Positions 2,457-57,166 of a stretch of 57,314 nucleotides of DNA are shown here, piece after piece. Position numbers and translations under genes: made by a program. Numbering within the stretch: the first letter of the stretch is position 1; each line of letters begins with the position of its first letter. The notes under the pieces were generated by a model. That model was not told the origin of the DNA. It ran no database searches and worked only from the letters and a program-made list of their open reading frames with translations. Source of the DNA: Girardia tigrina (lineage: Eukaryota); assembly GCA_001938485.1 (NCBI GenBank), contig MQRK01170105.1:1-57314 (forward strand). Reading direction: 5' to 3'.

Positions 2457-3689
2457 TATACTTAGTCTTTAATTATTTTCCTTTATGACCTATTAAATAT
2501 GAGATTATACATAATGAAAACACTCTTTAGTACAGTTTTCGTACATTTTCTTATTTTTACATATATTTAATATATTTTTATCCTAATTTGATTTATTTTA
2601 ACAATATTTAAATGCTATCAATTAGTTATAATGGAAAAAACCTAGGATAATTCTTTCTAATTTTAATATTGTTACTTTTATTTTCAACAAAAACTTATAC
2701 TAATATTTATCAGTTTGATTATTTTATTATTGGAAAAATATATTTTTTTATATATCCCGCATAATTTTAAAATAATTTCACTGTATTTCAATGACACTAA
2801 TTAATTTGATTTCAAAGATTTCCAAATTTCCTGGGTGACTTAAATGTCTCATTTGGATATCTAATAAATTACATTCGAATATGACAAATGAATCTGCCTT
2901 GTTTTCTAACAATATTTTGCTAAGAATTTCTGAAATCCTTAAACATTTAGAAACTAAAAGATTTTTTTACTGATTTGTATTTTTAATACATTGGATAGTC
3001 GAATCCTCGTTTTATAACACTTTCAGATTTACTTAAAAATAATATAATTAACAAATTTAAGTCTAGAATATTTTTCAAATAAATTTAAAAATAATAAAAA
3101 TATTTATGAAACAATATTTTGATTAGTGGTTTTGCAGTCTTAAGATTTTTAGTCTCTGATATCTATCATTACTGTTTTAATAAACATGGATCGTTACTGA
3201 CCCCGTGGACTTAAATAAGTAAAAGAATAAAATAATATTACAAAACTATTATTATGAATGAGGTTGTTATAGAGGGAATACAAGATTTAAACTTTAATTT
3301 TAAATTGTTGACTTAATTTAGAAAAAAACTTTATGAATTGAAATAAAAGCCATTACAATTAACTCATGTTTTCAATAAACATTTATATATGCCCATAACT
3401 TAGAAAGCCGGTAGTACTTCATCTGGAGCAAAATTATTCAGATGCTTGAAAAATTGTTAGTTAGATAATAAGAGGTCTGACAAGGATAAATGATGAGACA
3501 TAGTCTAGAAGTCTAAATCCTTCAACTTATGTGGGGTCAGCTAAGCGACACGCGTGCGGATGCTATAATGAAGCAGAATTGATCCTTTTTTAACCAATAT
3601 CTAAAAAATATATTAAAGCTCCTAGTGTATTTCATCAATTTGTTGAGTATAATTCTGTCATAATCATCTTACCCTGATTCTGAATTTAA

Positions 3690-3693
<4 letters not shown>

Positions 3694-3740
<47 letters not shown>
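3694..3740. repeat. (TA)n microsatellite abutting an assembly gap
   Basis: Perfect TA run ending at the N block 3741-4162. Confidence 0.95.
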
Positions 3741-4189
3741 NNNNNNNNNNNNNNNNNNNNNNNNNNNNNNNNNNNNNNNNNNNNNNNNNNNNNNNNNNNN
3801 NNNNNNNNNNNNNNNNNNNNNNNNNNNNNNNNNNNNNNNNNNNNNNNNNNNNNNNNNNNNNNNNNNNNNNNNNNNNNNNNNNNNNNNNNNNNNNNNNNNN
3901 NNNNNNNNNNNNNNNNNNNNNNNNNNNNNNNNNNNNNNNNNNNNNNNNNNNNNNNNNNNNNNNNNNNNNNNNNNNNNNNNNNNNNNNNNNNNNNNNNNNN
4001 NNNNNNNNNNNNNNNNNNNNNNNNNNNNNNNNNNNNNNNNNNNNNNNNNNNNNNNNNNNNNNNNNNNNNNNNNNNNNNNNNNNNNNNNNNNNNNNNNNNN
4101 NNNNNNNNNNNNNNNNNNNNNNNNNNNNNNNNNNNNNNNNNNNNNNNNNNNNNNNNNNNNNNAAATAGCAATTAATCACTTTATTTCAT

Positions 4190-4226
4190 TGCACTGAAGA
4201 TGCCGAAATGGTGAAACGCGTTTGTA
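4190..4226 (+). ncRNA. Minimal type I hammerhead ribozyme motif
   Basis: UGCA-CUGAAGA-U-GCC(GAAAU)GGU-GAAA-CGCG-UU|UGUA. Both core boxes are present, with stem II GCC/GGU, palindromic stem III ACGCGU and 4-bp stem I UGCA/UGUA. Confidence 0.7.
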
Positions 4227-33965: not shown

Positions 33966-35338
33966 TCCTGCCCCCCCCAAAAGTCTTCACTCAGTACCTT
34001 TTTCATACTTTTAACTGGTCGTAATGAATTCTTTAACATTTAAACCCAAATAGAAAACAGAAGACAAAAGAGGCAAAGGAAAATTAGTATATAGTACAGT
34101 TTTCTTTAGCTCCTATGACTGTTCCTACGCGGTTTGACATAGAATCGACCAATTTTTTCAGGAGCTGTGGAAGAATATTTGCCCATTCTTTCCGCAGCTG
34201 AAGTTCTATTTCAGTGGGATTCCTTAGAAGCACCTGCCTTTTACGAACGAGTCGGTCTACTTCATCACATAGGAATTCGATTGGGTTCAAATTGGGGCTT
34301 TGTGGCATCCATTCCAGTACATTTATGTCACTTATTTCGAAGAAATCCTTAATGAGATGCGACGCATAGATTTGTGCCATAACGTGTTAGAAGAGCATAT
34401 CGGCAATTTCTGAGAGGAATGGAAGCGCTTCGTGTTCAAGGATTGCTCGGAACTCCATGGAATTCATGTTGTTAGTACACTTGACCAATGGGCCAGTACC
34501 CTTGACTGTGAAGTAACTCCAAAACATTATGGAGCCGCCGCCGTACTTGACTGTTGGAAGAACAAAATCAGGATGAAATCGTTCATCATTGCGCCGCCAT
34601 GGAAATTATCGTCCATCGGAATGGAAGAGTGTAAAACGGGACTCATCGCCCCATATAATTTTCTGCCAATCAGCAGAAGTCCAGATACGTCTGGCATTGC
34701 ACCAACGAAGACGCCGCATGCGAATGGCTTCTAAAATAAATGGTTTTCTTGCACATACTCTCCCGTAGAAATCCAAGAAATGCAGATTTCGGCGAACTGT
34801 ATACATGCTTGCCTGTTTGTGGCCTGCGTTGTACTCAGCAGTGATATGCGCCAAGGGCATGTCCCAGTTCTGCTTCAGAAGTCGAACAAGCTGTCGTTGG
34901 TCACGATTGCCCAAACATTTTGGTCGGTAAAATCGCTTCTTGTTTACATGACTGTACGTGCTGCGATACTTTCGGAGAAATGAATCAATTGTTAATTTTG
35001 GGTGACCAGTTAGTTGTGAAATTTCACTCTGAGATTTGTTGCACAGATGGAAGCCATAGATGATGCCCTTCTCAAAGTCCGTAAGCTCCTTTCGTAATTC
35101 CATGCTTAGCAATATAGTGAATAATGGTGAAATAGAAAAACGCTTCGTGCAATATCATTTCTGAGAAGTCTATTTTTAGAGAACCAATAGGATAACAGTA
35201 TAAACTTTGTCATTTCAATATACTGATAGTATGACAGCCTTATAATTCTTTGATTTAAGATGACTTTCCCAATACACTCATATAACATCAGGAAAGAGTC
35301 AAATACGCTTTTGACCGATGACTTTTGGTATGGCAGAG
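33966..35338 (-). mobile_element. Near full-length Tc1-family (DDE) DNA transposon; transposase frameshifted
   Basis: ORF 34606-35112 gives the HTH through ARKPF...WQKIIWGDESRF. A middle frame gives PTVKYGGGSIMFW. ORF 34084-34380 gives LEWMPQSPNLNPIEFL. Imperfect TIRs tcctgccccccccaaaagtc / gacttttggtatggcagag are flanked by TA. Confidence 0.92.
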
Positions 35339-38412: not shown

Positions 38413-41076
38413 ATGAAATATTTTCAATTGAAACTAATTTTCTTTCACATATTATTTGAGATTTCCTTTCCGATCATTTGGACTCAAGAAATAACGTTCT
38501 ATGTCGTAGAGGAAAACAAAAATGATCTGATTCTGGGGAACATTAATTATTTCCTCGAAAATCAAATGAAAACCGATCCGAAATCCGCAGAGTTTCATTT
38601 TATTAGTAAATATATCTCCATAGATAACGTATCAAAAAACGTTCGAATGAAACAAGTCGTCGATGTGGACACGATTTGTTCCACGGATTCCGAATGTTGT
38701 GACCAGGACATTTGCGTAATTAAAACAAAAATCCTTCTTCAAGAACATAACCAGTATAAAGCAACATTTTTATTGAAACTAGAAATTAAAGACCTTGATG
38801 ATAATTATCCGGTTTTTAATGAAGAAAAGAAAATCATCAGTCTATCCGAAAAGATTCCACTCAACACTTCAATTTCCATTGAAGGAGCTATAGACAAGGA
38901 TTTTTCCAAGGAAAATCAGGAGAAGATTTATCAGTTTTTTGATAGTACTGAAACCTTCGAACTGTCGAACCCTCATTTCCATTCTTTATCAATTTTTGTC
39001 AGAAAGCGTTTAGATTATGAAACAAAAGAAATGTTCAATTGTTTGCTTAAGGTTTGCGATAGAAAATATCAAAATTGTGCTAATAAATCTATAATAATAA
39101 AAGTAAAAGATGAAAACGACAATGATCCAGTATTCGAAAGAAAATCTTATTTTGTGAAAATACCTGAAAATTTCCAAATCGGGAAAGAGATTCTAAAGGT
39201 TACAGCGAAAGACATTGATGGAGTTGGATATAATAGAACGAAATATGGTTTTCAGTCGGAGTATAACATAATGTCGGTTTTTAAAATTGATGAACAAAGC
39301 GGTGCAATAAGTCTGATAAATAATCTTTCAATTAATAAGAAAAGTAAATATAATTTTAAAGTTTACGCAATGGACGCTTCGTTTATCAGTTTCAAAAAAG
39401 ATTACACAGAAGTCGAAATAAACGTTGAAGATGTCAATGATAACTACCCTTTAATTTCCCTTCTTAACGGTCCAATGCCGAATTTATATTTGGTCGATAT
39501 TGAAGAAAACATTCCTCCGAAAACTTTGTTTTCCATTCAAGTTACCGATAAAGATCTGGGGAATAATTCCATTGTAGCGTGTTCCTTAAACACAGCCAAA
39601 GATGATCTTATTAAAATGGTTAAAATTGATTTAGAAATTTATCAAATTAATACTCAAAATCTTTTGGATTATGAAACAATTCAAACGATTGAAGGAGAGA
39701 TCCTTTGCTCGGATTCCGGAATTCCATCGTTATTATCGAGGAAACAGATCCAAATTAACATTATCGATGTGAATGAATATGAACCGGAAATAAAAAATTC
39801 CCCATTGATTATTAGTTTAAAGGAAAACATTCCCGAAAATAAGTATGTAATGAATATAGATGCTACTGATAGCGACAGAGGGGCTGTTCTGACGTATTAT
39901 CTAGATGAATCCAGCAAGGTTCATTTTTCCATTGATTCTCAAACTGGAAAGGTTCTAACAACAAACAACCCACTTGATAAAGAAACAAATGATTCTGTCA
40001 AATTCAAAGTTATAGTTACAGATAGTCTAAAAAATCCGTATACGGCAACAGTTGTCATAACGGTTAATATACTCGATCAAAATGATAATGCCCCACAGTT
40101 TATCCATGTCCGACCCTTCGTTGTTTATGAGAATCAGTTTATTTACACAAAATTAACCACGAAAATCGAAGCAAATGATGCTGATAAAGAAGAACTAAAT
40201 AGATCAATAATATTTCGTTTACTACATACATTTAATTGTCATATGGAAATGATCCATGACCAAGTGTTTGACGTAAACTGGCTGGGAGAAATCGAAACTG
40301 TAGCACTAATAGATCGAGAGAAAGATAATAATTATACTCTAACTATTCTCGCTCAAGATAGAGGTAATCCACCATTTTCAAACTCTATAAATATTACAAT
40401 CACAATTCAAGATATAAATGACAATGCACCGGTATGGATTTATCCATATGCGATTCCGCCTGTGGAACCGGAAGCCACAATTAATGTTTCTAGGGACGCT
40501 ACTCTAGGAACTGTTATAGCAAATCTTAAAGCATCAGATCAGGATTTAGATGATGCTGGTAAAGTCGGTTACTTAATCTTATCTTCTGACACTTATCATC
40601 GCAATGGTCATTTTTTACTTTTAAATGAAACTACTGGAACTTTGAGTATCTCCCAGTATCCTTTAATCTATGGAAGAAATCAGTTACGTATTCGAGCTCA
40701 TGATCATGGGCAGCCTCAATTATATACAGATGCTACACTAATTATAAATGTAATGCAGTCCAACGATAACCTATTTAGTGGTCTTAACATGGCTATTATA
40801 ATTGGAATGTTGTCGATCACTGCCCTAATTTCCCTTTTTCTAGTCATTGCTATCTTTTTTATTCGTCGAAGTCCAAATCCACCTCGAAATCATAGACTGT
40901 CAAGTCAAAATATCAGAAAAGATTGTGAAAGTACCTTGAAAAATTCCTATAAAGATCTGGATGAGTTTCCTGAAAAAATTGATTCTGTGTTTACCGACAA
41001 TGACTGCCACCACGTGTATTACCGGAATGGAAACAGCGAAACAAATCTACCCATGTATCCTCAATCATCCGTAGAA
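38413..41076 (+). CDS. Protocadherin (7 cadherin repeats, delta1-like architecture): large exon with signal peptide, ectodomain, TM and proximal cytoplasmic tail
   Basis: Hydrophobic N-terminus. Linkers DLDDNYP, DENDNDP, DVNDNYP, DVNEYEP, DQNDNAP and DINDNAP, plus a seventh repeat. LDYE/LDKE/IDRE and AxDxG motifs. TM MAIIIGMLSITALISLFLVIAIFFI. Acceptor tttttag lies directly before the ATG and a phase-0 donor GAA|GTACGT lies at 41077. The ORF tail to 41187 looks intronic. Confidence 0.93.
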
Positions 41077-42539
41077 GTACGTTATAAAATTTACTTGTTT
41101 TTACGTTTACATTTTTTAATAGTTTTTTTCAAAGACAAAGTGTTATTCTTTTCAAAATATTTAAAGATATTTTACATAATTTTCTAATTATTAGCTTTTC
41201 CGAAAATATGACCAAAGATATCCGAAACAAGACACGCCCTTTTATAATTGAAAATGAATATTTCTTAAAAATCCTTAATTTGGTCATTTGAGAGAATATA
41301 AAAAGTGTTACTACATCATTGTTTTGTAGCGAGATCTAATTAATTTGACTGTTATAAAAGTGTATCATGGATAGGTAAACGTTGATGCTACATTAACTAC
41401 GTGTTAGAAAGATTTGTTTAAAAGATTGTTCAAACTTTATCACAACTGAGTTATAAAGTTATTAAATCTTAAAATACTTGTATAAAATAAATGTATTATA
41501 CTTTTATTCTGAAAGAAACATGTGATATCCTAATACATTATTCAGTTGCTCTGAACCAGTACCATCTTGGGCACAAAACTCTAAGCTGTTATCTCCAGAT
41601 GGCTTGCCCAAAGCAACCCACATATAATTATATATCGTTATATTAAATAAAATAAAAATAATTAAATAATCTAATTAATAAACATGTGCTGATTGGTTAA
41701 AATATTTAATTCAAAAAAATAATAATGGCTAATTTACCCCTGAAGACTTCGAAAATTGAAACTTAATACATATAACAAACTGACTGTATTACGAGCTATT
41801 TTCTTGCAATATTTCGAGTTTTTTATTGATCAAGTTACAAACTAGTTATTTAACATTGAGAAGTAATAATACTTAATATATAATATTATCAGAGTCAAAT
41901 CAACCTGAATATTCTAAACTATGAGATTAGATTACAATTATAAAGTAACTTATATTTATTGTTCACCTTCAAACACATTTTTCTTTTTACAAGATTCACA
42001 ATACATTTAGCATTCCGTTCAACTGTTGTAGTTAATACAATTTTATTGAATAATATTTATATTTTTTATTTATATAATTATACTAGAAGAGGATTTAGTA
42101 CATAGTCAATTATAACTAAGTTCACTTTTACTATTATATAATACAAATCTGTTTTATTAAATACAAATCCAAATAAAGAGAAGAGACTATTTAAAGTGTA
42201 ATTTTCAATTTCTTAAAAAGCATAAGTGAGGATACAAGATTGTTAATTTTATACAATTGCAAGAGTAAATGTAATTAGCAAGACGATTTTTGAGAAAATA
42301 ATAAACCTGAAATTAAATTACATTTTACAAACGATACTCAGCAAGATTATATTGGTAAAATATCGGTGGACGAAAAAAATAAAGAAAAATATAACTTTTA
42401 TTATTATAATCGACATAAAGTCAGACAATTGAAGGAAGCAAAGAATTATAGAAGGTCTTCGAAAACGTGTTACTTTGGAAGAAAAAAATAAAGTGAGTGA
42501 ACAATTTATCAAATATGTAACTTAGAAACCAAATTTAGT

Positions 42540-44130: not shown

Positions 44131-44827
44131 ACCGGTGTTGGTGCACAAGCGGGCGCAGCGCAGTGGCAGGACTTCATTCAATCATGTAAAATATGTCAGA
44201 AAAAGACTATGACAACAAAGTCAAAAGAAACCATCGTGAAACAAAGTGCAAACTATCCATTCAAATCAATATTTCTAGATTTCTGTGGTCCGTTAAAGCA
44301 AGCATTTCAGGGAAAAATATATTTTGGCTATTATAGATCAGTTAAGCCGGTATATATCATTAAATGCAGTTGCTAAGATGGATGAAGGTACGACAATCGA
44401 GATACTTCTCAGTCACTGGATTTGGAAATTTGGAGAACCATGTATAATTCACATGGATTGTGCTAAAACGTTTAAATCTTCCGTAATGAAAGAGCTTGCG
44501 GAACGTCGTAAAATACAACTACAATTTTCTAGCTCTTATCATCATAGCGTTAATGGCATAATTGAGAGACAATTTAGAACCATAAGAGATTATATAAATG
44601 GCACAAGACAAGATAAAATCGGAAAGACATGGGTTGATATCTTACCAAAGGTAGAATTTACTCTGAATGATACAACACAGAAATCGATTGGAATGAGCCC
44701 AACAGAAGAGATATTTGGATTTTAAATTAACCGACAATGGAATAATTCCTGGAGAACGAATAAAAATAAAGATGAAATTGTTAAATTACTTAGGAGGAAT
44801 CAGGAAAAAATAGTTATGACAATAGTA

Positions 44828-45180
44828 GGCCTCCTCCCCCATCGGCGGCAGCACATGGACCCTTTTCGGAATCCATGCGGCACTTACCCGACGGATAATG
44901 ACTCGTAGAATCTATAAGGAGCCGGGACGGTTGTCTCATCGGGTTTCACCCCTCAACTGATCATGGGCCCCGCCGTTAGACGTTTCCATGATCCCGCCCG
45001 GAATAGCATTGCCTTTCAAGAGGGCGGATTGCGGGCCCAGACCCTCGTACTATGTTGGTCAGCACCCCAACAAGGCAAGCTTCGGACACTTTAGCCTAGA
45101 GCATGCTCTAGTTTCCCAGGGACACCACGTGGAGGTATGTCCGACTGGCTTAACACAGGTTACCAAAGTAACGGGACCCC
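44828..45180 (-). mobile_element. 353-bp GC-rich non-coding SINE-like retro-insertion headed by an HDV-like ribozyme
   Basis: Perfect 12-bp TSD atgacaatagta (44816-44827 and 45181-45192). About 57% GC by hand count. No TIRs. Removing it restores integrase SYDNSKICHTTFNVGDEMLVK. Confidence 0.9.
45083..45180 (-). ncRNA. HDV-like self-cleaving ribozyme fold
   Basis: Minus strand: P1 GGGGUC/GUCCCU (G1-U wobble, one U-U mismatch), J1/2 with hairpin GUUAC/GUAAC, P2 CGGACAU/GUGUCCG, P3 ACC/GGU, L3 UCCACGU, P1.1 CC/GG, P4 from palindromic CUAGAGCAUGCUCUAG, and J4/2 GCUAAA with the putative catalytic C at 45094. Confidence 0.85.
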
Positions 45181-46959
45181 ATGACAATAGTAAAATTTGT
45201 CACACGACATTCAATGTGGGAGATGAAATGTTAGTCAAAATTGAAAGTCTTAATAATAAAGACGGGAATCGTTATGATGGTCCTTTTAATATAATTAAAA
45301 AGAGACATGACAGAAGTTATGAAGTAACAAATAATAAGGGGAAGACATTAATAAGAAATGTTGAATGGCTAAAGCCTTTTAAGAGATGGATATGTGAGAT
45401 AAATTAATATTTGTAAATAATAAATGTAAATAACTTATAATAAAATTTAATTAAACATGGTTCAAAAACATTCATATATTTTAACTCTACTATTTTAGAA
45501 ATGTGATTTTATAAAAAGACAAATTTATTCAAATATTGTCAGAAATCGCGTGAAAATTAAAAATATTGTTTTATATTATCTAATAAGATTATTTAAAAAA
45601 TAAATAATGGCGAATGGATTTTGAAAAGAAAGATGAAAATTTGTTTGTAACAGAAATTGTTTAATTTGGCTAATGAGGGGCATTACTGACGCAATATTTG
45701 ACGCAATAGATAATGTTGACTTAATATTTAGTAAAAGTTAATTGTAAAAAATTAATAATTAATTGATAAAAAAGAAAATAAAATGAAATGATATTAAAAA
45801 AAATAATTTGCTTCAAGTTTTAGCGTGAAAGCAAAAGAATTTGTTTTCTCTCTTCGATTTCAGCAGAAAAAGACATGGAAAAGAACATTTCATTTCGAAT
45901 TTAATTCTTCAATTAAAATCAATTTCAAAGTAACATTTTTTTTCAAATATTATTAGTTCAATTATGAAATATTTTTTTTAATTTATTTTAATGAAAAACC
46001 TAGCATGCGAGAAATTGTTTTTTTCATTACAAAAAACGAAAAAAAATAAATTTTTTTTATTAAATTAAATTAGTTTTTCTATCATAAATATAAAGTTTTA
46101 AAACAAATTTTACAAAAAAAGTAATCTATTGTTGAATTTTTTATTTATTTTTGATACAATTTTGATTTCCTTTGACCATTGTCAGATCCAATTTTTCTTT
46201 CTACATTTCCACTGTTTTTTTAATAAAATATAATTTAAAATTTCTGTTATTTAAACAAATGTTCTTTTCTTTTATTATTCTTTTTTTCAATGAGGTTTTT
46301 TAATAAATATAAAAAAATCATTGTTAATAATTCACAATAGGATTTATTTAATTTTCGAAAGAATATTTGTGTATTTTATAATATTTCCCGTTTTAGGTAA
46401 TTGTTTTCGTGAATGTCTGTTGAAAATGTCGATTCAGCTGTTTTGTTTAAATGAGTTTTATACTTATTCGAAATAGATGGCAGTTAAAACAAAAAAACAG
46501 ATTTTTATTTTACTTTTTAATCCAGTTTAACACTCAGTTTTAATAATATATTAATTACAAATATTTTTTTTATTATTATAAATATGTCTGACTAGAGATT
46601 AGAATATTAAGTATTTCAATAATAATTTATTTTATTTTTAAATATTTTAAATTGTTTTCTTTTGAAGATAAATATATTTGTGTAAATTTAATTAAAATAT
46701 TAGCTTTTTTTAATATTTTATTTAGAGATATTTTAAGTATTAGAAGATGGAAGATGAAAACATTTTTTTTTATTTTCAGTGTTTTCATTAAAAAATATAT
46801 TAACAGATGAAGTATTAGTAATGTATTAAATATATATTTAGTTTAGATTATCAAAAATATTGAAATCATACTTGTTTCCTAAAAGCAGAAATTATTAAAG
46901 AATAAAGCATTATTACCTTTAATTTGATAGTCTTCCTTTTTATGATACGTGTAATAAAT

Positions 46960-50657: not shown

Positions 50658-51190
50658 CCTAAAACTTCCAATAATCCCGCTGGGGAATTATTCTTTTTTT
50701 TAAGTTGGAAAAACAAGGACATGGGGGAGTATTAGAAATTTTTAAAAATCAAAAGTTTTTTTTAAAAATCAAATTTATTCATCCATTTCTGAATAGCTAG
50801 ATTCCAAATAGTCCTGAACTTAATGATTTATACTAGCACAATATTTTGTTCTAAATTTGATACCAAATTGTGCATTTTTGGTAATGAAAAAGCTCATTCC
50901 TTCACCTAAGAAACACGAATAAAAACTTTTTATAATCAGTTTTTTTGAAAGAGTATCCCCAGCAATATTAACGCATTTTGAAATCAACTCGCAATGCGGA
51001 GGTTTTATTCTACCAGATTTGGTACGCTCACAAGTATCAGATTTAAACCATTGAGCAGTTTGACCCGCATGAAGTCTTTAAATGATTTATTCCAAAAATA
51101 TTCGCTGGCTGAAGAAGACTGGTCAAAAAATTTAAAAAATTTTCAGCGTTGGGAATTATTAGAAGTGGGGGATTATTAGAAGTTTGAGAG
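50658..51190. mobile_element. ~530-bp MITE with pogo/Tigger-like TIRs
   Basis: Left TA-cctaaaacttccaataatccc versus reverse complement of the right end TA-ctctcaaacttctaataatcccc. TA flanks both ends. Confidence 0.65.
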
Positions 51191-51220
51191 TATTATAGAA
51201 ATAGTAATATTAGTCGGTAT

Positions 51221-51223
<3 letters not shown>

Positions 51224-51285
<62 letters not shown>
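51224..51285. repeat. (TA)n microsatellite abutting an assembly gap
   Basis: Perfect TA run ending at the N block 51286-52143. Confidence 0.95.
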
Positions 51286-52261
51286 NNNNNNNNNNNNNNN
51301 NNNNNNNNNNNNNNNNNNNNNNNNNNNNNNNNNNNNNNNNNNNNNNNNNNNNNNNNNNNNNNNNNNNNNNNNNNNNNNNNNNNNNNNNNNNNNNNNNNNN
51401 NNNNNNNNNNNNNNNNNNNNNNNNNNNNNNNNNNNNNNNNNNNNNNNNNNNNNNNNNNNNNNNNNNNNNNNNNNNNNNNNNNNNNNNNNNNNNNNNNNNN
51501 NNNNNNNNNNNNNNNNNNNNNNNNNNNNNNNNNNNNNNNNNNNNNNNNNNNNNNNNNNNNNNNNNNNNNNNNNNNNNNNNNNNNNNNNNNNNNNNNNNNN
51601 NNNNNNNNNNNNNNNNNNNNNNNNNNNNNNNNNNNNNNNNNNNNNNNNNNNNNNNNNNNNNNNNNNNNNNNNNNNNNNNNNNNNNNNNNNNNNNNNNNNN
51701 NNNNNNNNNNNNNNNNNNNNNNNNNNNNNNNNNNNNNNNNNNNNNNNNNNNNNNNNNNNNNNNNNNNNNNNNNNNNNNNNNNNNNNNNNNNNNNNNNNNN
51801 NNNNNNNNNNNNNNNNNNNNNNNNNNNNNNNNNNNNNNNNNNNNNNNNNNNNNNNNNNNNNNNNNNNNNNNNNNNNNNNNNNNNNNNNNNNNNNNNNNNN
51901 NNNNNNNNNNNNNNNNNNNNNNNNNNNNNNNNNNNNNNNNNNNNNNNNNNNNNNNNNNNNNNNNNNNNNNNNNNNNNNNNNNNNNNNNNNNNNNNNNNNN
52001 NNNNNNNNNNNNNNNNNNNNNNNNNNNNNNNNNNNNNNNNNNNNNNNNNNNNNNNNNNNNNNNNNNNNNNNNNNNNNNNNNNNNNNNNNNNNNNNNNNNN
52101 NNNNNNNNNNNNNNNNNNNNNNNNNNNNNNNNNNNNNNNNNNNNTTTTTCTTAATTTTAAGGAAAAGTGAAATAAAGTTATTTTCATCCAATAATTTATT
52201 GGATAAATTTAATTTATTTTCGGCAAGCTACCATATAGTGTACTTGCGTAGTGTAATTTGT

Positions 52262-52302
52262 GAACTGATGATGGGATTTTTATTATCTCGAAACGCGTCG
52301 TC
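52262..52302 (+). ncRNA. Minimal hammerhead ribozyme motif (GUC triplet)
   Basis: CUGAUGA-U-GGGAU(UUUUAUU)AUCUC-GAAA-CGCG-UC|GUC. Stem I is imperfect (GAA versus GUC). Confidence 0.65.
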
Positions 52303-54324
52303 TTGTTTTTATCCCTATTATATAGATTTTACTTTGCAATGTATATATATATATATATATACAACTCGTCTGGAACTACCATAAAAATAGTTTCATTACA
52401 TTAAGTTCTAATTTAATACGTTTTCAGTGAAAACTTCATTACAAAATATCATTAAAGTATTTTTTTAAGAATATATTCTATTTTATTAAGTAATATTAAA
52501 CTCAAAGTTTTTTTTGGTTTTTGTGAGTTTAATTAAGATAAAAAGTTTTTTTGACTAAAATCAAATTTCAAAAAAGTAATTAATCAAAATAATTAATTAA
52601 TTATAATTAATTAAAAATCTTTAAAAAAATTCATCAAATAATTATAATAATTAAGTAATGTATTTTGATTTATATAAAAAACTTTATTGAGTGAAATTTC
52701 AACTAATGAATTCCTAATATTCATTCAATATTTGATTTATTAATTTATTTTTGACATTTATGGATAGAATATAAATTTTTGTTTAATAATTGAATTTGAT
52801 TGTTTTTACTATAAATTTTATAGGAAAATATATAAATCAAAATCGGAATCAAATATTTTCATAAAACTGTCAAAGATTTTTTATGACATTATCGATTAAT
52901 GGACGGAAAAAATAAGTAATTAAAAAGAATAAAGAAAATATATAAATAAATTATTTGAAATAATAATTCTTAATTCTTGAGATTATTGCTAATAAATCTA
53001 AAAAGACCAAATAATTAATATTTATTGAATGATTTTAATGAAATTCGCGCGAAAATCTTCTTGAATAGATTATCAAATAAATTTTTGATGAAATATTTTT
53101 TTTTATTTTATTTTTTCTTAAAATATCTATAAATATTTAATAGTAAATAAATATTAATTTTGTCAATTATTCGATGTAAATTAAAATAAAAGTAAATATT
53201 TTTTATATCTTATATATTAAAAAAATATTATTTTGATAATAACGTCTTGAAATAATTCAAATTACAAATCTTTAATTTATTTAATTGAATAGATTTAAAG
53301 GTTTAAATGGTTGCTTGAATGAAATTTAAATAAAAATTATATTAAAAATATATGAAGAAAATATTCCTTTTTATTCTATTAAAAATTAATTTAAAAGGTA
53401 TTAAAATTTATAGATAATTTAAAATAGAATTTTCAATTAAAAAAATATTACTATTTGTATATTAATATTTCAATATTCTATATTTTAGACAAAAAAATAG
53501 TTTTGGCTTTTTACAAATTATATTAATTATCGAAAAATTTTCTTCATTTAAAAAAATTTAAAAAAATTAATTTGAATATTTTAGAAAATAATAAAACGTG
53601 TTTTTTATTGAATAATTCTTGTGGAAAATTAATTTTTTTTCAATTTTTATTTCTTTCCCTTTAAAAGAAAAAAAATTAAAAACAAATTTATTGAAAGATA
53701 TTTACAAATTAATAGAATACTTTATTATTATTTTTCATTTAAATGATTTTTTCAATTTTGAATGGGAAACAGGATTTCTTTTGTTGAAATTTTTATTATT
53801 CTTGTCCAATTAGTATATGTTTTTTTTAGATTTCATGAAGTTAGATTCCATTCAATTCTTTTATTAAATATTTATTCACAAAATTAACTTATATAAATAA
53901 CAATAAACAATCAACGTTTTATGATGGCAAATAATAGTTTTCTGTTAATTGAAAGAATGGGGAAAATGAAAGAAGAAATTCAAAAAGCTTTTCTTAGTGG
54001 AAATAAAAAATATTAAAACTTTTTAAATTTTAAAAAATATTTTTTTTTAATTGAACTTTATTATTAATCTTACTGTATTAAAAAAATATGTAAATAAATA
54101 TTTAATACCCATTAAGATCTAAAACTATTTTGTTTTTTTAAGTGTTTTCCAATCTATTATTTCGTTATTGCAATCAATTATGACATAAATAGAATAGTTT
54201 AAAAAAAATAAATTTAAACGAGTTGTGATTATTATTTGTTTAAGTATTCTAAAAAGATTGTAAATAATAAATAAATTCTACTTGTTGTTATTATGAATTC
54301 TGAAGTGAAACCTGGAGATTTAAC

Positions 54325-57166
54325 TGGCGATCACGCTGGTGTTCCAATAAAAGTTTTGAGGCTTCCTAAACTAGAACTTCCATCAATCTTTAAGGAAACC
54401 CTCAAGAAGAAAATGAAGGAGTACAATGGAGTTGATTCTGAAGAAGGTCAAATATGATATAGAGACATATGTCAATGCTCAGAATTTGTTGGATTAACAT
54501 TCTCGGAAATGTGTAACTATTTGTTGATAGACGAAGCGAAAATTCTTTGTGGGAATGCAACAGAAGAGGGTAAGAAACCAATGTCAGATGTGGAATCCAA
54601 AAATTGGTTCCAGAAAACATTTATAAAGAAAGTATCGCTGTTGGAAGAATTGGACAAACTAAGCCAAATCTCTCAAGGTGAGAATGAAAGATTCTTAACA
54701 TTCGAATTAAGGGTTCGAAAAACAATTGAAAATTTTAGGAAACACAGCGATGAAGAAATTTTGAATGAACTTTTGAAAGAGCGGATAAAATCTCAAGTTC
54801 TGAAGGATCGATTTGTTTTCAAACCTAACATATCGGTGGACGAAATGAGAGCGGAAGCTAAGATTTATGAGGACAACATATTAAAATAAGAAAGAAATGA
54901 TGTTTTAGCCGTCAAAACATCGAACTCAGAAATGGCAAAGAAAAACAAATATCAAGTTAGAAGATATGAGAATTCTGAACATAAAAGAAATACAGCTCGA
55001 TTGAATGAATCAAACGATAGACAACCAATATTAAGAACGGAACGTGGAATATTATCGGAAAAATTTAATAAAAGTAATGAGAAAGAATACAGTAGAATGT
55101 CAGACGATAAACAACAATATAATCGCCCAGTGCATTCGGCTTGGTATGAAACAAGGAAGTTATATTACAAAATAAAGAGACCTCCGACTCCAGAAGAGGA
55201 GCATTTAACCAGAGGGGATTGTTATTGCTGTGGAAAACATGGGCATTTGAGGATAGATTGTCCTTTAAATAATCTTTTTTTAATGTGTGAAAAAAGTAGA
55301 TTCAGAAACTGTAATCATATTAAGAATGTTAATGTAGTATGCATCAAAGATGTGTAAAATGAAGACAACATGTATATCGTATCATATAAAGATGAATATG
55401 AAGATGATGTAAAAGCCAGAGACTCCATGGTGAGCATTTTGTCTGTGGAGTCGGCATAAAATATCCAATAAATCGAATTGCAGAGATAGTAGAGGGATCA
55501 GATGGTAGATTGTGGAGCGATGTTAGGCCGGACAATCACAATGTATTAATTTTTGGGATAGTGGAGCGGGTGTTTCGGTTATTAGTGAGAAGGTTTGGTT
55601 GGAAATCGAACAACCCAGATTAGAAAAGAGCGAATTATACGAAATGGGGCGTTTTCAGAAGGCCATAAGTTTTTGGGAAAAATGACAGTGAAGTTGAAAT
55701 TGAAAGAAGAATGCCATGCGGTAGATTTTTTAGTGGTGAAAGCAATCCGACCGGCAGTCATTGGAGGTGTTAATGTCATGCATAAATTCGGAATCAAAAT
55801 TGAAAAAAACTACCAAGAAGTCAGTTGTTACAGTGGAAAAAGATATGAAACTGCAAGAGCAAAACAAATGACTGGAAGAGCTTGTAAAACGATATGCTGA
55901 TGTTTTCATGAAACATGAATACGATTTGGGATTTACGGATATTGTGGTCCATAAAATTGAAACAGAAGGTAAACTGATTTTTCTGAATCCAAGAAGGTAA
56001 TCAATTCACTTAGAAAGTCAAATCGAAGGATTTCTGAAAGGATTAGAAAAGGCAGGAATAATTCGGAAATGTAAAAGTGAATGGAACTTCCTGTTAGTCA
56101 TTACGCCAAAGAAAGATGGAGGTATTCGAATTTGTTTAGATTTCAGAAAATTGAATGATGTAACAAAGAAAGTTTCCTTTCCAATGCCAGACAGCCAAAT
56201 GTTAATGGATGCTCTGGGTGGCTTCAGATTTTTTTCCAGTATAGATCTAGGCAAAGCATACCATCAAGTAGCATTGGATGAAAGTTCTCAAGAAAAGACT
56301 ACGTTTTACACAAGAACACAGAAGCATTGTTTTAACCGTGTACCGTTTTGACTTCCAACAGCACCCGGAACGTTTCAGAGAATAATGAATTCATTATTCG
56401 AAGATTTACTATTCTCTGGAGTAGTAATATACCTAGACGATGTCTTAATTTACTCAAAATCAATGAAGGATCATATGAGATTATTAGAAGAAGTACTGAA
56501 TAAACTGAAGAAAGCAGGTTTAAAAGTCAATCCAGGGAAATGCAAATTCGGAGTGGGGGAGCTGGTATTTCTGGGACATACAATTAACAAAGAAGGTATC
56601 TCAACAAATAAATTGAAAGTTGCAAAAATTCAAAATTTTCGATTCCAAAGTGTACTCGAAATTTACGAGTATTTTTAGGTCTGTGTAACTACTATCGACA
56701 ATTTATCAAGAATTATGCAGAATTAGCAGCACCTTTGCACAGTGCGTGCAGCGAAAAATGTAATAATATTTTAATTTTTTTTAAGAAATATTTTGGTCAA
56801 ACGAGTGCGATAGAAGTTTTAACGAATTGAAGCAAAAGCTATGTGGTGCACCAATATTAGCATTTGTGAACCCGAATAATAATTTCATCTTAGACACAGA
56901 TGCATCATTCGGATCGATAGGAGCAGTTCTTAGTCAGATATCAGAAGAGAGAGAAGTAGTAATCTCGTATGCATCGAGGACTTTAACCACACATGAAAAA
57001 GGGTACTGTGTTACAAGAAAGGAACTATTAGCTTAACAAGAGTTCATGTTACATTTCAAACAATATTTATATGGGAAGCGATTTACAGCAAGAACTGATC
57101 GTAAAGCACTGATGTATATGAAGAGTACTTCCAAACCAATAACTCCTCAATTCCAGACATGGTTAG
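54325..57166 (+). mobile_element. Decayed Ty3/gypsy retrotransposon: gag, protease, RT and RNase H
   Basis: Possible PBS tggcga.. at 54325. Gag with CYCCGKHGHLRIDC knuckle. Protease DSGAGVSVI at ~55557. RT SIDLGKAYHQV and VIYLDDVLI. RNase H FILDTDASFGSIGAVLSQ and YCVTRKELLA. Similarity stops abruptly at ~57166. Confidence 0.92.

Follow-up and report, generated by a model that had tools for sequence, protein, structure and literature searches.

A GC-rich, non-coding island framed by an exact direct repeat on the Girardia tigrina contig MQRK01170105.1 raises the question of what kind of sequence it is, how it was copied there and what selected its site. The window considered throughout is the whole stretch analysed, 57,314 nucleotides of that contig. 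Here we report that the island is a member of a dispersed non-coding family with precise ends, termed family A, and that the main feature of the family, absent from the initial annotation, is a target motif at its insertion sites. We hold it probable that RNA of this family is cut by a predicted HDV-like ribozyme and copied by the reverse transcriptase of an RTE-like LINE that favours the motif. The copy and its surroundings are laid out as follows.

44827..45180, minus strand: family-A non-autonomous retroposon copy, 354 nt counting the terminal T at 44827
44816..44826, no strand: TSD on the 3' side of the element, 11 bp (a 12-bp identity when 44827 is counted)
45181..45191, no strand: TSD on the 5' side of the element; position -1, at 45181, holds a U that could extend P1
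44297..45407, plus strand: decayed Gypsy-like integrase, host of the insertion, with its rve core in 44297-44722

The initial annotation had drawn the element as 44828-45180 on the minus strand (353 nt) between perfect 12-bp TSDs, and the 12-bp repeat ATGACAATAGTA is indeed exact at 44816-44827 and 45181-45192; by a hand estimate from local composition, chance identity over 12 bases at two given ends has a probability of about 5e-7. Judged from related sequences, the TSD of this copy is likely 11 bp rather than 12. The T at 44827 is likely encoded by the element, because both the LINE and a sister family (family B) have C where the target has T, and because one family-A copy (L068) has T after a C target. 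The 353-bp island measures 56.7% GC, whereas most 1-kb bins of the window lie at about 15-35%, and contains neither an ORF nor a tRNA head, in keeping with its description as a non-coding island of about 57% GC. No terminal inverted repeat was found at its ends, and the copy contains no tRNA, neither an A box nor an exact B box, and no poly(A), all as first claimed. The short tail originally described is present as GGAGGAGG at the end, although the tail comprises more than GGAGGAGG and also closes a predicted three-way junction. We rejected a MITE or DNA transposon on the lack of terminal inverted repeats and on a TSD length that varies from 7 to 14 bp in family A. The insertion interrupts the integrase, whose remnant also gives a weak SH3_Tf2-1 match near 45258-45326, and a contig of run X4 spans the host site without the insertion. 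Of the sequencing runs, available as contigs, the single one recorded as RNA gave 3 pieces, in which no transcript ends are visible.

Elsewhere the window holds an open frame of 924 aa that encodes six cadherin repeats and is likely a large protocadherin-type exon (38413-41187, plus strand), a Tc1-type transposase fragment (34606-35154, minus strand) and decayed reverse transcriptase fragments (56001-56678, plus strand). Open frames on both strands at 3664-4197 and 51180-52384 are of low complexity or very AT-rich and are probably simple repeats or gaps.

A search of the genome (1.43 Gb in 255,254 contigs) with the element gave 1,563 first-look candidates, and 35 of the 40 that were scored are full length (start at or before position 9, end at or after 351) at 86-100% identity. 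The exact 22-nt ribozyme core has 168 genome matches and none in the control; the exact 3' 20-mer has 28, and is rarer because subfamilies of about 305 and about 350 nt diverge near the 3' end. Within loci L001-L110, 105 core matches reduce to 79 unique copies with a head, 68 that also have a tail and 54 that also have a TSD. Thus 54 of the 68 complete unique copies carry a TSD (10-13 bp in 48 of them), and 44 of the 54 have no base at all between the TSD and the first G or A of the ribozyme, which bears out the earlier expectation that copies with different TSDs would begin at the same G. No long ORF lies behind the core in the 70 core-pattern loci opened among the 168 matches (100 of them listed), and hence none of these loci revealed a LINE headed by family A. 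One copy (L050/L052) is interrupted near position 114-123 by ~1.8 kb of inserted sequence, and copies at L037 and L090 are flanked by intronless, hydrophobic-rich frames of ~318 aa, possibly seven-transmembrane receptors.

The 5' end of these copies coincides with a fold whose parts are listed below, where element position n corresponds to window position 45181-n.

45082..45180, minus strand: predicted HDV-like ribozyme fold
45180-45175 with 45123-45118, minus strand: predicted P1 (element 1-6/58-63), with a U-U mismatch at 45176/45122
45172-45159, minus strand: predicted J1/2 hairpin
45144-45137 with 45089-45082, minus strand: predicted P2 (element 37-44/92-99)
45136-45134 with 45126-45124, minus strand: predicted P3 (element 45-47/55-57)
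45133-45127, minus strand: predicted L3, UCCACGU (element 48-54)
45117-45115, minus strand: predicted G run of P1.1
45111-45096, minus strand: predicted P4 (element 70-76/79-85)
45094, minus strand: C87 in J4/2, the predicted catalytic cytosine, equivalent in alignment to the J4/2 C of HDV models in Rfam

Every part of the complete HDV-like double pseudoknot named in the initial annotation could thus be located, C87 at 45094 included. Descriptor searches bear on it less decisively: three HDV-type Rfam models match the minus strand, all under their gathering scores (E 0.15-2.7; 16-21 bits against thresholds of 37-50, each model representing one narrow family), and at gathering threshold Rfam has no match in the whole window. 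The minimum free energy of the whole element is no better than that of shuffles (z -0.77), by a method blind to pseudoknots. Among the 79 family-A heads, position 87 is C in 74 and A89 and A90 are kept in 76, while paired cells number 458/474 in P1, 602/632 in P2, 236/237 in P3, 532/553 in P4 and 384/395 in the J1/2 hairpin, with the conservation of positions 45-66 inflated in that many copies were selected by that exact pattern. We regard covariation across families, as read from the alignments, as stronger evidence for the predicted fold than these within-family core counts. Relative to the sister families, P3 changes from ACC/GGT to ACT/AGT (the latter being P3 of family B) and pair 6 of P1 from C-G to T-A, and family-B P1.1 alternates between CC/GG in 11 and CT/AG in 17 of 28 heads. 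P1 itself reads CAGGGAT/ATCCCTG in family B and GGGATAC/GTATCCT in LINE1.

Covariation in family B fixes a 7-bp P1 whose first base belongs to the element and is C in 30 of 32. By homology, the flanking base could serve as position 1 in family A, where it is T in 53 of 79 heads and able to pair with G64 in 63. P1 could thus be 6 bp, in the G1 register, or 7 bp with the flanking U; T at -1 is likewise frequent before the LINE (24 of 37). Predicted cleavage may accordingly be placed at G1 or one base upstream of it. In the available text of PMC3774820, P1 of R2 ribozymes spans 6-7 bp, a range that includes a 6-bp P1. The copy in the window has U5 where 77 of 79 heads have A, which gives a U-U mismatch in P1, and it is probably a weakened daughter; such a mismatch was proposed as the reason for non-cleavage of another HDV-like ribozyme (PMC3774820, same portion).

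Family A has relatives with similar heads. Positions 31-180 are homologous to family B (E 6e-20), which has 442 core matches in the genome. Over positions 100-200 the comparison of A with B stands at 6 of 1000 shuffles, and comparisons with LINE 5' ends are not significant (128 and 446 of 1000). A short motif in this part of the element resembles sequence in both:

45026..45038, minus strand: short motif GGGCCCGCAATCC, resembling GGGC(T/C)AGCAATCC of family B and of the region just behind the LINE ribozyme

In families B and C the loop L4 of the ribozyme reads GGTTCGA(T/C)TCC (L141, L228, L231 and family-B loci L192-L220), and the B-box-like GTTCGANYC occurs there in 12 of 33 family-B and 2 of 2 family-C heads; LINE2 carries GGTTAAAGTCC at the same L4 position. 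Scanned with A- and B-box consensus patterns, family-A copies have no A box (0 of 54) and a B-box match anywhere in only 3 of 54, and the strict B box is found in P4 of none of 77 heads. Family A might still be a Pol III-driven SINE, or the descendant of one, in which the fold of the ribozyme is left over from an RTE 5' UTR and cutting is dispensable: it is homologous to a family that has the box-like loop, and RTE 5' parts do occur inside Pol III SINEs according to the accessible part of PMC5786205. We judge this very unlikely, given those scans, the lack of a tRNA, 5S or 7SL head, a 5' end that coincides with P1, and the retention of C87 and all helices. Promoter independence of family A is plausible. 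The open literature, with Repbase and subscription papers outside the scope of the search, yielded no B box inside an HDV-like ribozyme.

A candidate basis for the choice of site emerges when the 54 family-A sites are aligned on the start of the TSD, which gives the motif GTGT-N-A-rich-TT^AC. Upstream, at positions independent of the search patterns, G-14 occurs in 50 of 54, T-13 in 39, G-12 in 46, T-11 in 39 and A-9 in 43; near the nick, T-2 occurs in 42, T-1 in 52, C+2 in 44 and A+1 in 53, the last partly forced by the tail pattern. The nick is placed at T^A because the final base of the LINE and of family B is C, against T in the target. In the window the motif was located as follows:

45192..45205, minus strand: upstream half of the target motif, with GTGT at -14 to -11 (45205-45202), an A-rich spacer and TT at -2/-1

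The element's own site scores 15.4 bits and ranks second of 114,578 window positions, being itself in the training set. Applied to other insertions, the family-A matrix exceeds the 95th percentile of the null for 25 of 37 LINE and 17 of 32 family-B sites, and the remaining 12 and 15 agree with the motif no more closely than the null does.

The best matches to the motif are two hot spots, a single site in 28S rRNA and the YIG codons within a GIY-YIG repeat. With 18.9 and 18.2 bits out of a maximum of 20.6, they rank with the highest-scoring family-A sites. At the 28S hot spot, Rfam LSU matches end or begin at the insertion site, which lies in L145 ~550 bp downstream of the R2-site region, placed by the R2 site sequence. 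There are 14 exact matches to upstream sequence plus TSD, none with the native continuation. Of 12 that were opened, 7 have 28S upstream and 1 has it downstream, all 8 with an insertion, and 4 belong to an AT-rich repeat; one of the other two is apparently a fifth such repeat (unopened), and L141 is the fourteenth. Since no empty 28S site was found, the assembly has probably collapsed the intact rDNA or lacks it, and occupancy therefore cannot be read from it. The seven downstream junctions comprise 2 of family A, 2 of the LINE, 1 of B type and 2 others. Several further structures bear on this site. L223/L224 (G000:C48176, C54634) carry another LINE-like start with variant L3/P3, whose reading frame runs to the end of the contig and closes with TWNVRG; inserts or 3' ends that fit no known class (L225, L235, L238, upstream of L005 and of L179) end GGATTC, CTCGTT, GGATTT or GCTTTTT; and in L222, L226, L229 and L230 the AT-rich repeat contains a 28S target fragment of only ~25 bp, twice per copy.

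The second hot spot falls in YIGE codons of a repeat that matches GIY-YIG at E 0.001-0.005 in three of four pieces, below the cut-off; the repeat is likely the nuclease gene of another transposon, presumably Penelope-like by its motif. It has 703 exact junctions, the first 100 of which, assigned by hand, are 67 LINE, 17 family B, 2 family A and 14 other, with at least six different 3' ends at the site. Among the first 100 of 1,211 upstream matches, likewise sorted by hand, 35 have a non-native continuation, 17 of these with a recognisable head. So heavy a use of one repeat, together with the duplication of some loci, might suggest that copies are passengers in other repeats or in DNA duplications and that the motif merely reflects a few host repeats. 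This is scarcely credible, and already largely refuted by the unique TSDs: with duplicate flanks removed, the hot spots supply only 4 of the 54 training sites (3 GIY-YIG, 1 28S), the other sequences differ and still show the motif, and the diversity of 3' ends at the GIY-YIG site also speaks against it.

The question of the enzyme led to LINEs with the same habits. An APE search of the genome gave 126 matches, of which 30 loci were opened first and 20 fetched at length. These form two groups; one bears HDV-like heads, and the other (L111-L123) has no similarity to the element. A full copy of the former (L141:982-4839, 3,858 bp) is bounded by two identical ACCACAGGGAT TSDs and encodes APE, RT and C-terminal C2H2 fingers with one in-frame stop, while a relative 93% identical (P0001) is open for 1,169 aa. 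The LINE has a single ORF, with an N-terminal APE followed by RT and neither RNase H nor zf-RVT; the finger region recurs in relatives at 34-36% identity. We saw three subfamilies (LINE1, LINE2 and LINE3), with 471 exact heads and at least 2,941 exact 3' ends, the pattern skipping some. The LINE ends in GAGATGGGAGGCCC directly before the TSD and lacks a 3' microsatellite tail, a feature listed for RTE in the available portion of PMC6007223. About two thirds or more of its copies are dispersed. At the 28S site, L141:704-5400 (G000:C255124) holds an array of an internally deleted B, the full LINE, another B and a C, all separated by one and the same 11-bp repeat. In L127 and at LINE 5' ends the reading frame opens in or just behind P2 without an ATG, as is expected for ribozyme-assisted initiation.

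From its sequence this LINE likely belongs to the RTE group. In a quick RT tree (73 rows, with no named RTE references) it forms its own clade (SH-aLRT 100), adjoining proteins that bear DUF6451, which we take to be an RTE marker (support 93, unstarred; DUF6451 was not matched in the LINE itself). An R2, R4 or R5 (RLE) identity was rejected on the N-terminal APE and on the location of most copies outside rDNA. Ingi/Vingi, a first guess from the 12-bp TSD, which we took as a pointer to them, was rejected as well: the LINE sharing head and sites has no RNase H, and it groups apart from the RNase H-bearing rows of the tree. The PDB relatives of its protein are only L1, R2 and intron RTs. A metagenome scan returned 78 distant loci at 21-40% identity, and a pattern search of these found neither the 28S site nor a ribozyme head.

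We consider this LINE the likely mobiliser of family A, since the two have in common the ribozyme core, the motif, the fold of the 3' junction and tandem sites. Family-A positions 45-94 match the LINE2 and LINE3 heads at E ~1e-6 and LINE1 at 0.01, with nothing beyond the ribozyme, and P4-J4/2 is closest to LINE3. Among the 79 family-A heads, 2 stand directly behind a LINE 3' end, 1 behind a B-type end and 1 behind another A. The 3' end of the element is as follows.

44827..44923, minus strand: predicted three-way junction at the 3' end, with a closing stem, a 5-bp hairpin (3-nt loop) and a second hairpin, ending GAGGCCT

This fold was recovered in both family-A subfamilies, in family B and in LINE1, over its final 58 nt, and was not obtained by MFE for the LINE2 and LINE3 ends. 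Family A and the LINE 3' ends have the terminal GAGG-NN-Y and the fold in common; in sequence, nhmmer found no significant match between them in either direction (best E 2.2), nor did the 3' ends of families A and B match significantly. The 3' end of family B matches that of the LINE in 11 of 12 copies (E at most 0.02, best 8e-6), its 5-bp hairpin being 96% paired with one compensatory pair. The predicted junction is likely what the LINE protein recognises. The anticipated LINE sharing both ends was found in part: it carries an HDV-like head and inserts with the same signature, whereas its 3' end is alike only in fold. The element is no simple internal deletion of the LINEs found, its 3' end having no significant sequence match to them.

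The same lack of 3' homology to the three subfamilies would be explained if another LINE did the copying, be it an unfound sister subfamily or one of Ingi/Vingi or R2 type, the sites being merely common to both. Hot-spot usage also differs, with 7 of 79 family-A heads at the GIY-YIG site against 20 of the first 100 LINE ends listed, and because of this lower use the true partner of family A may be a related subfamily. The first look covered 30 of the 126 APE matches, 20 were fetched at length, and Ingi, Vingi and R2 also yield bipartite derivatives (PMC5786205, in its available text). Against this, the motif, TSD length, AC start, 28S and GIY-YIG sites and tandem joins all match the LINE found, and the P4-J4/2 of family A is nearest its LINE3 subfamily; we therefore rate a different LINE as unlikely.

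With the RTE-like LINE as mobiliser, a cycle can be proposed. Flanking DNA would drive read-through transcription of the element, and the RNA would cleave itself at G1 or at the preceding U. The LINE protein would bind the 3' three-way junction, and its APE would nick the bottom strand opposite T^A, while the GTGT that lies one helical turn upstream would likely be recognised by the endonuclease or by the C2H2 fingers at the C terminus; as motif readers, the zinc fingers are something we infer. Target-primed reverse transcription would run to the ribozyme-defined 5' end, and a second nick 10-13 nt downstream would give the TSD. Each insertion would leave AC behind its 3' end, and the LINE and short elements could in this way build tandem arrays at one site. 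We also entertain, as a doubtful extension, that an RTE-group LINE lineage with three C-terminal C2H2 fingers evolved specific integration, at first into a conserved 28S rRNA site, and has since relaxed so far as to hit, in hundreds of copies, the YIG codons of a Penelope-like endonuclease as well, with ribozyme-headed satellites recognised by the shape of their 3' RNA alone, some of them with a Pol III B box in the P4 loop.

These observations place family A among known systems, as far as the available portions of the cited papers describe them. Non-autonomous LINEs of bipartite build have been described for RTE, Ingi, Vingi and R2, and 5' ribozymes for RTE (PMC5786205, PMC6765202). Like Bov-A, RTESINE1/2 and WALLSI3, family A is short, has no ORF or small-RNA head, and has an RTE-type 5' end and probable movement in trans (PMC5786205); unlike these derivatives, it has a 3' end that is LINE-like only in fold, no microsatellite tail, a strong target motif and several sister families. 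NARTc and SIDERs carry active HDV-like ribozymes, and trypanosomatid NARTc, RIME and SIDER (PMC4035085) as well as R2 SIDEs (PMC3414825) resemble family A in depending on a LINE and in their 5' HDV-like ribozyme. The partner of family A, however, is neither Ingi/L1Tc nor RLE-type R2, being APE-type and RTE-like; a Pr77 promoter is not shown for family A, and copies are not confined to rDNA. The suggestion that the family is undescribed stands for the family, new as far as the open literature goes, and not for the kind of element, ribozyme-headed non-autonomous LINE derivatives being already known (PMC5786205, PMC4035085, as excerpted). The family or its 28S site may already be named in Repbase, in the 2011 survey of non-LTR ribozymes or in the paper on the Anopheles RT1/RT2 rDNA elements.

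The target preference is set against a similar background, again from partial texts. RTE elements have a split T-stretch/TA insertion signature (PMC6007223, PMC13295347), and ours resembles it in placing a motif about one turn upstream of the nick with T/A, common to LINE and SINE; it differs in an upstream GTGT instead of a T stretch and in being stricter (G-14 in 50 and G-12 in 46 of 54, in an AT-rich genome). PMC4640811 assigns most target-specific families to the early-branched, Tx1 and R1 groups and not to RTE. Like R2, R4 and R5/LIN (RLE) and R1 and Tx1 (APE), the present elements insert repeatedly at one 28S site and within another repeat and form tandem arrays, and the relaxed specificity of the LINE resembles that of some Utopia families (PMC4640811); unlike R2/R4/R5, R1 and Tx1 elements, the LINE is RTE-like and its copies are mostly dispersed. 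In the open literature, Repbase and closed papers being outside the scope, we found no sequence-selective RTE-like system. RTE elements are described as broad inserters and RTE-based gene writers as random integrators in the accessible text of PMC13708176.

The targeting system outweighs the element alone in importance. A natural RTE-like protein with a split motif and candidate zinc-finger readers would make the gain of target specificity by APE-type elements testable, and the 350-nt element may be viewed as a minimal cis template, a 5' ribozyme and a 3' junction whose shape is conserved while its sequence turns over.
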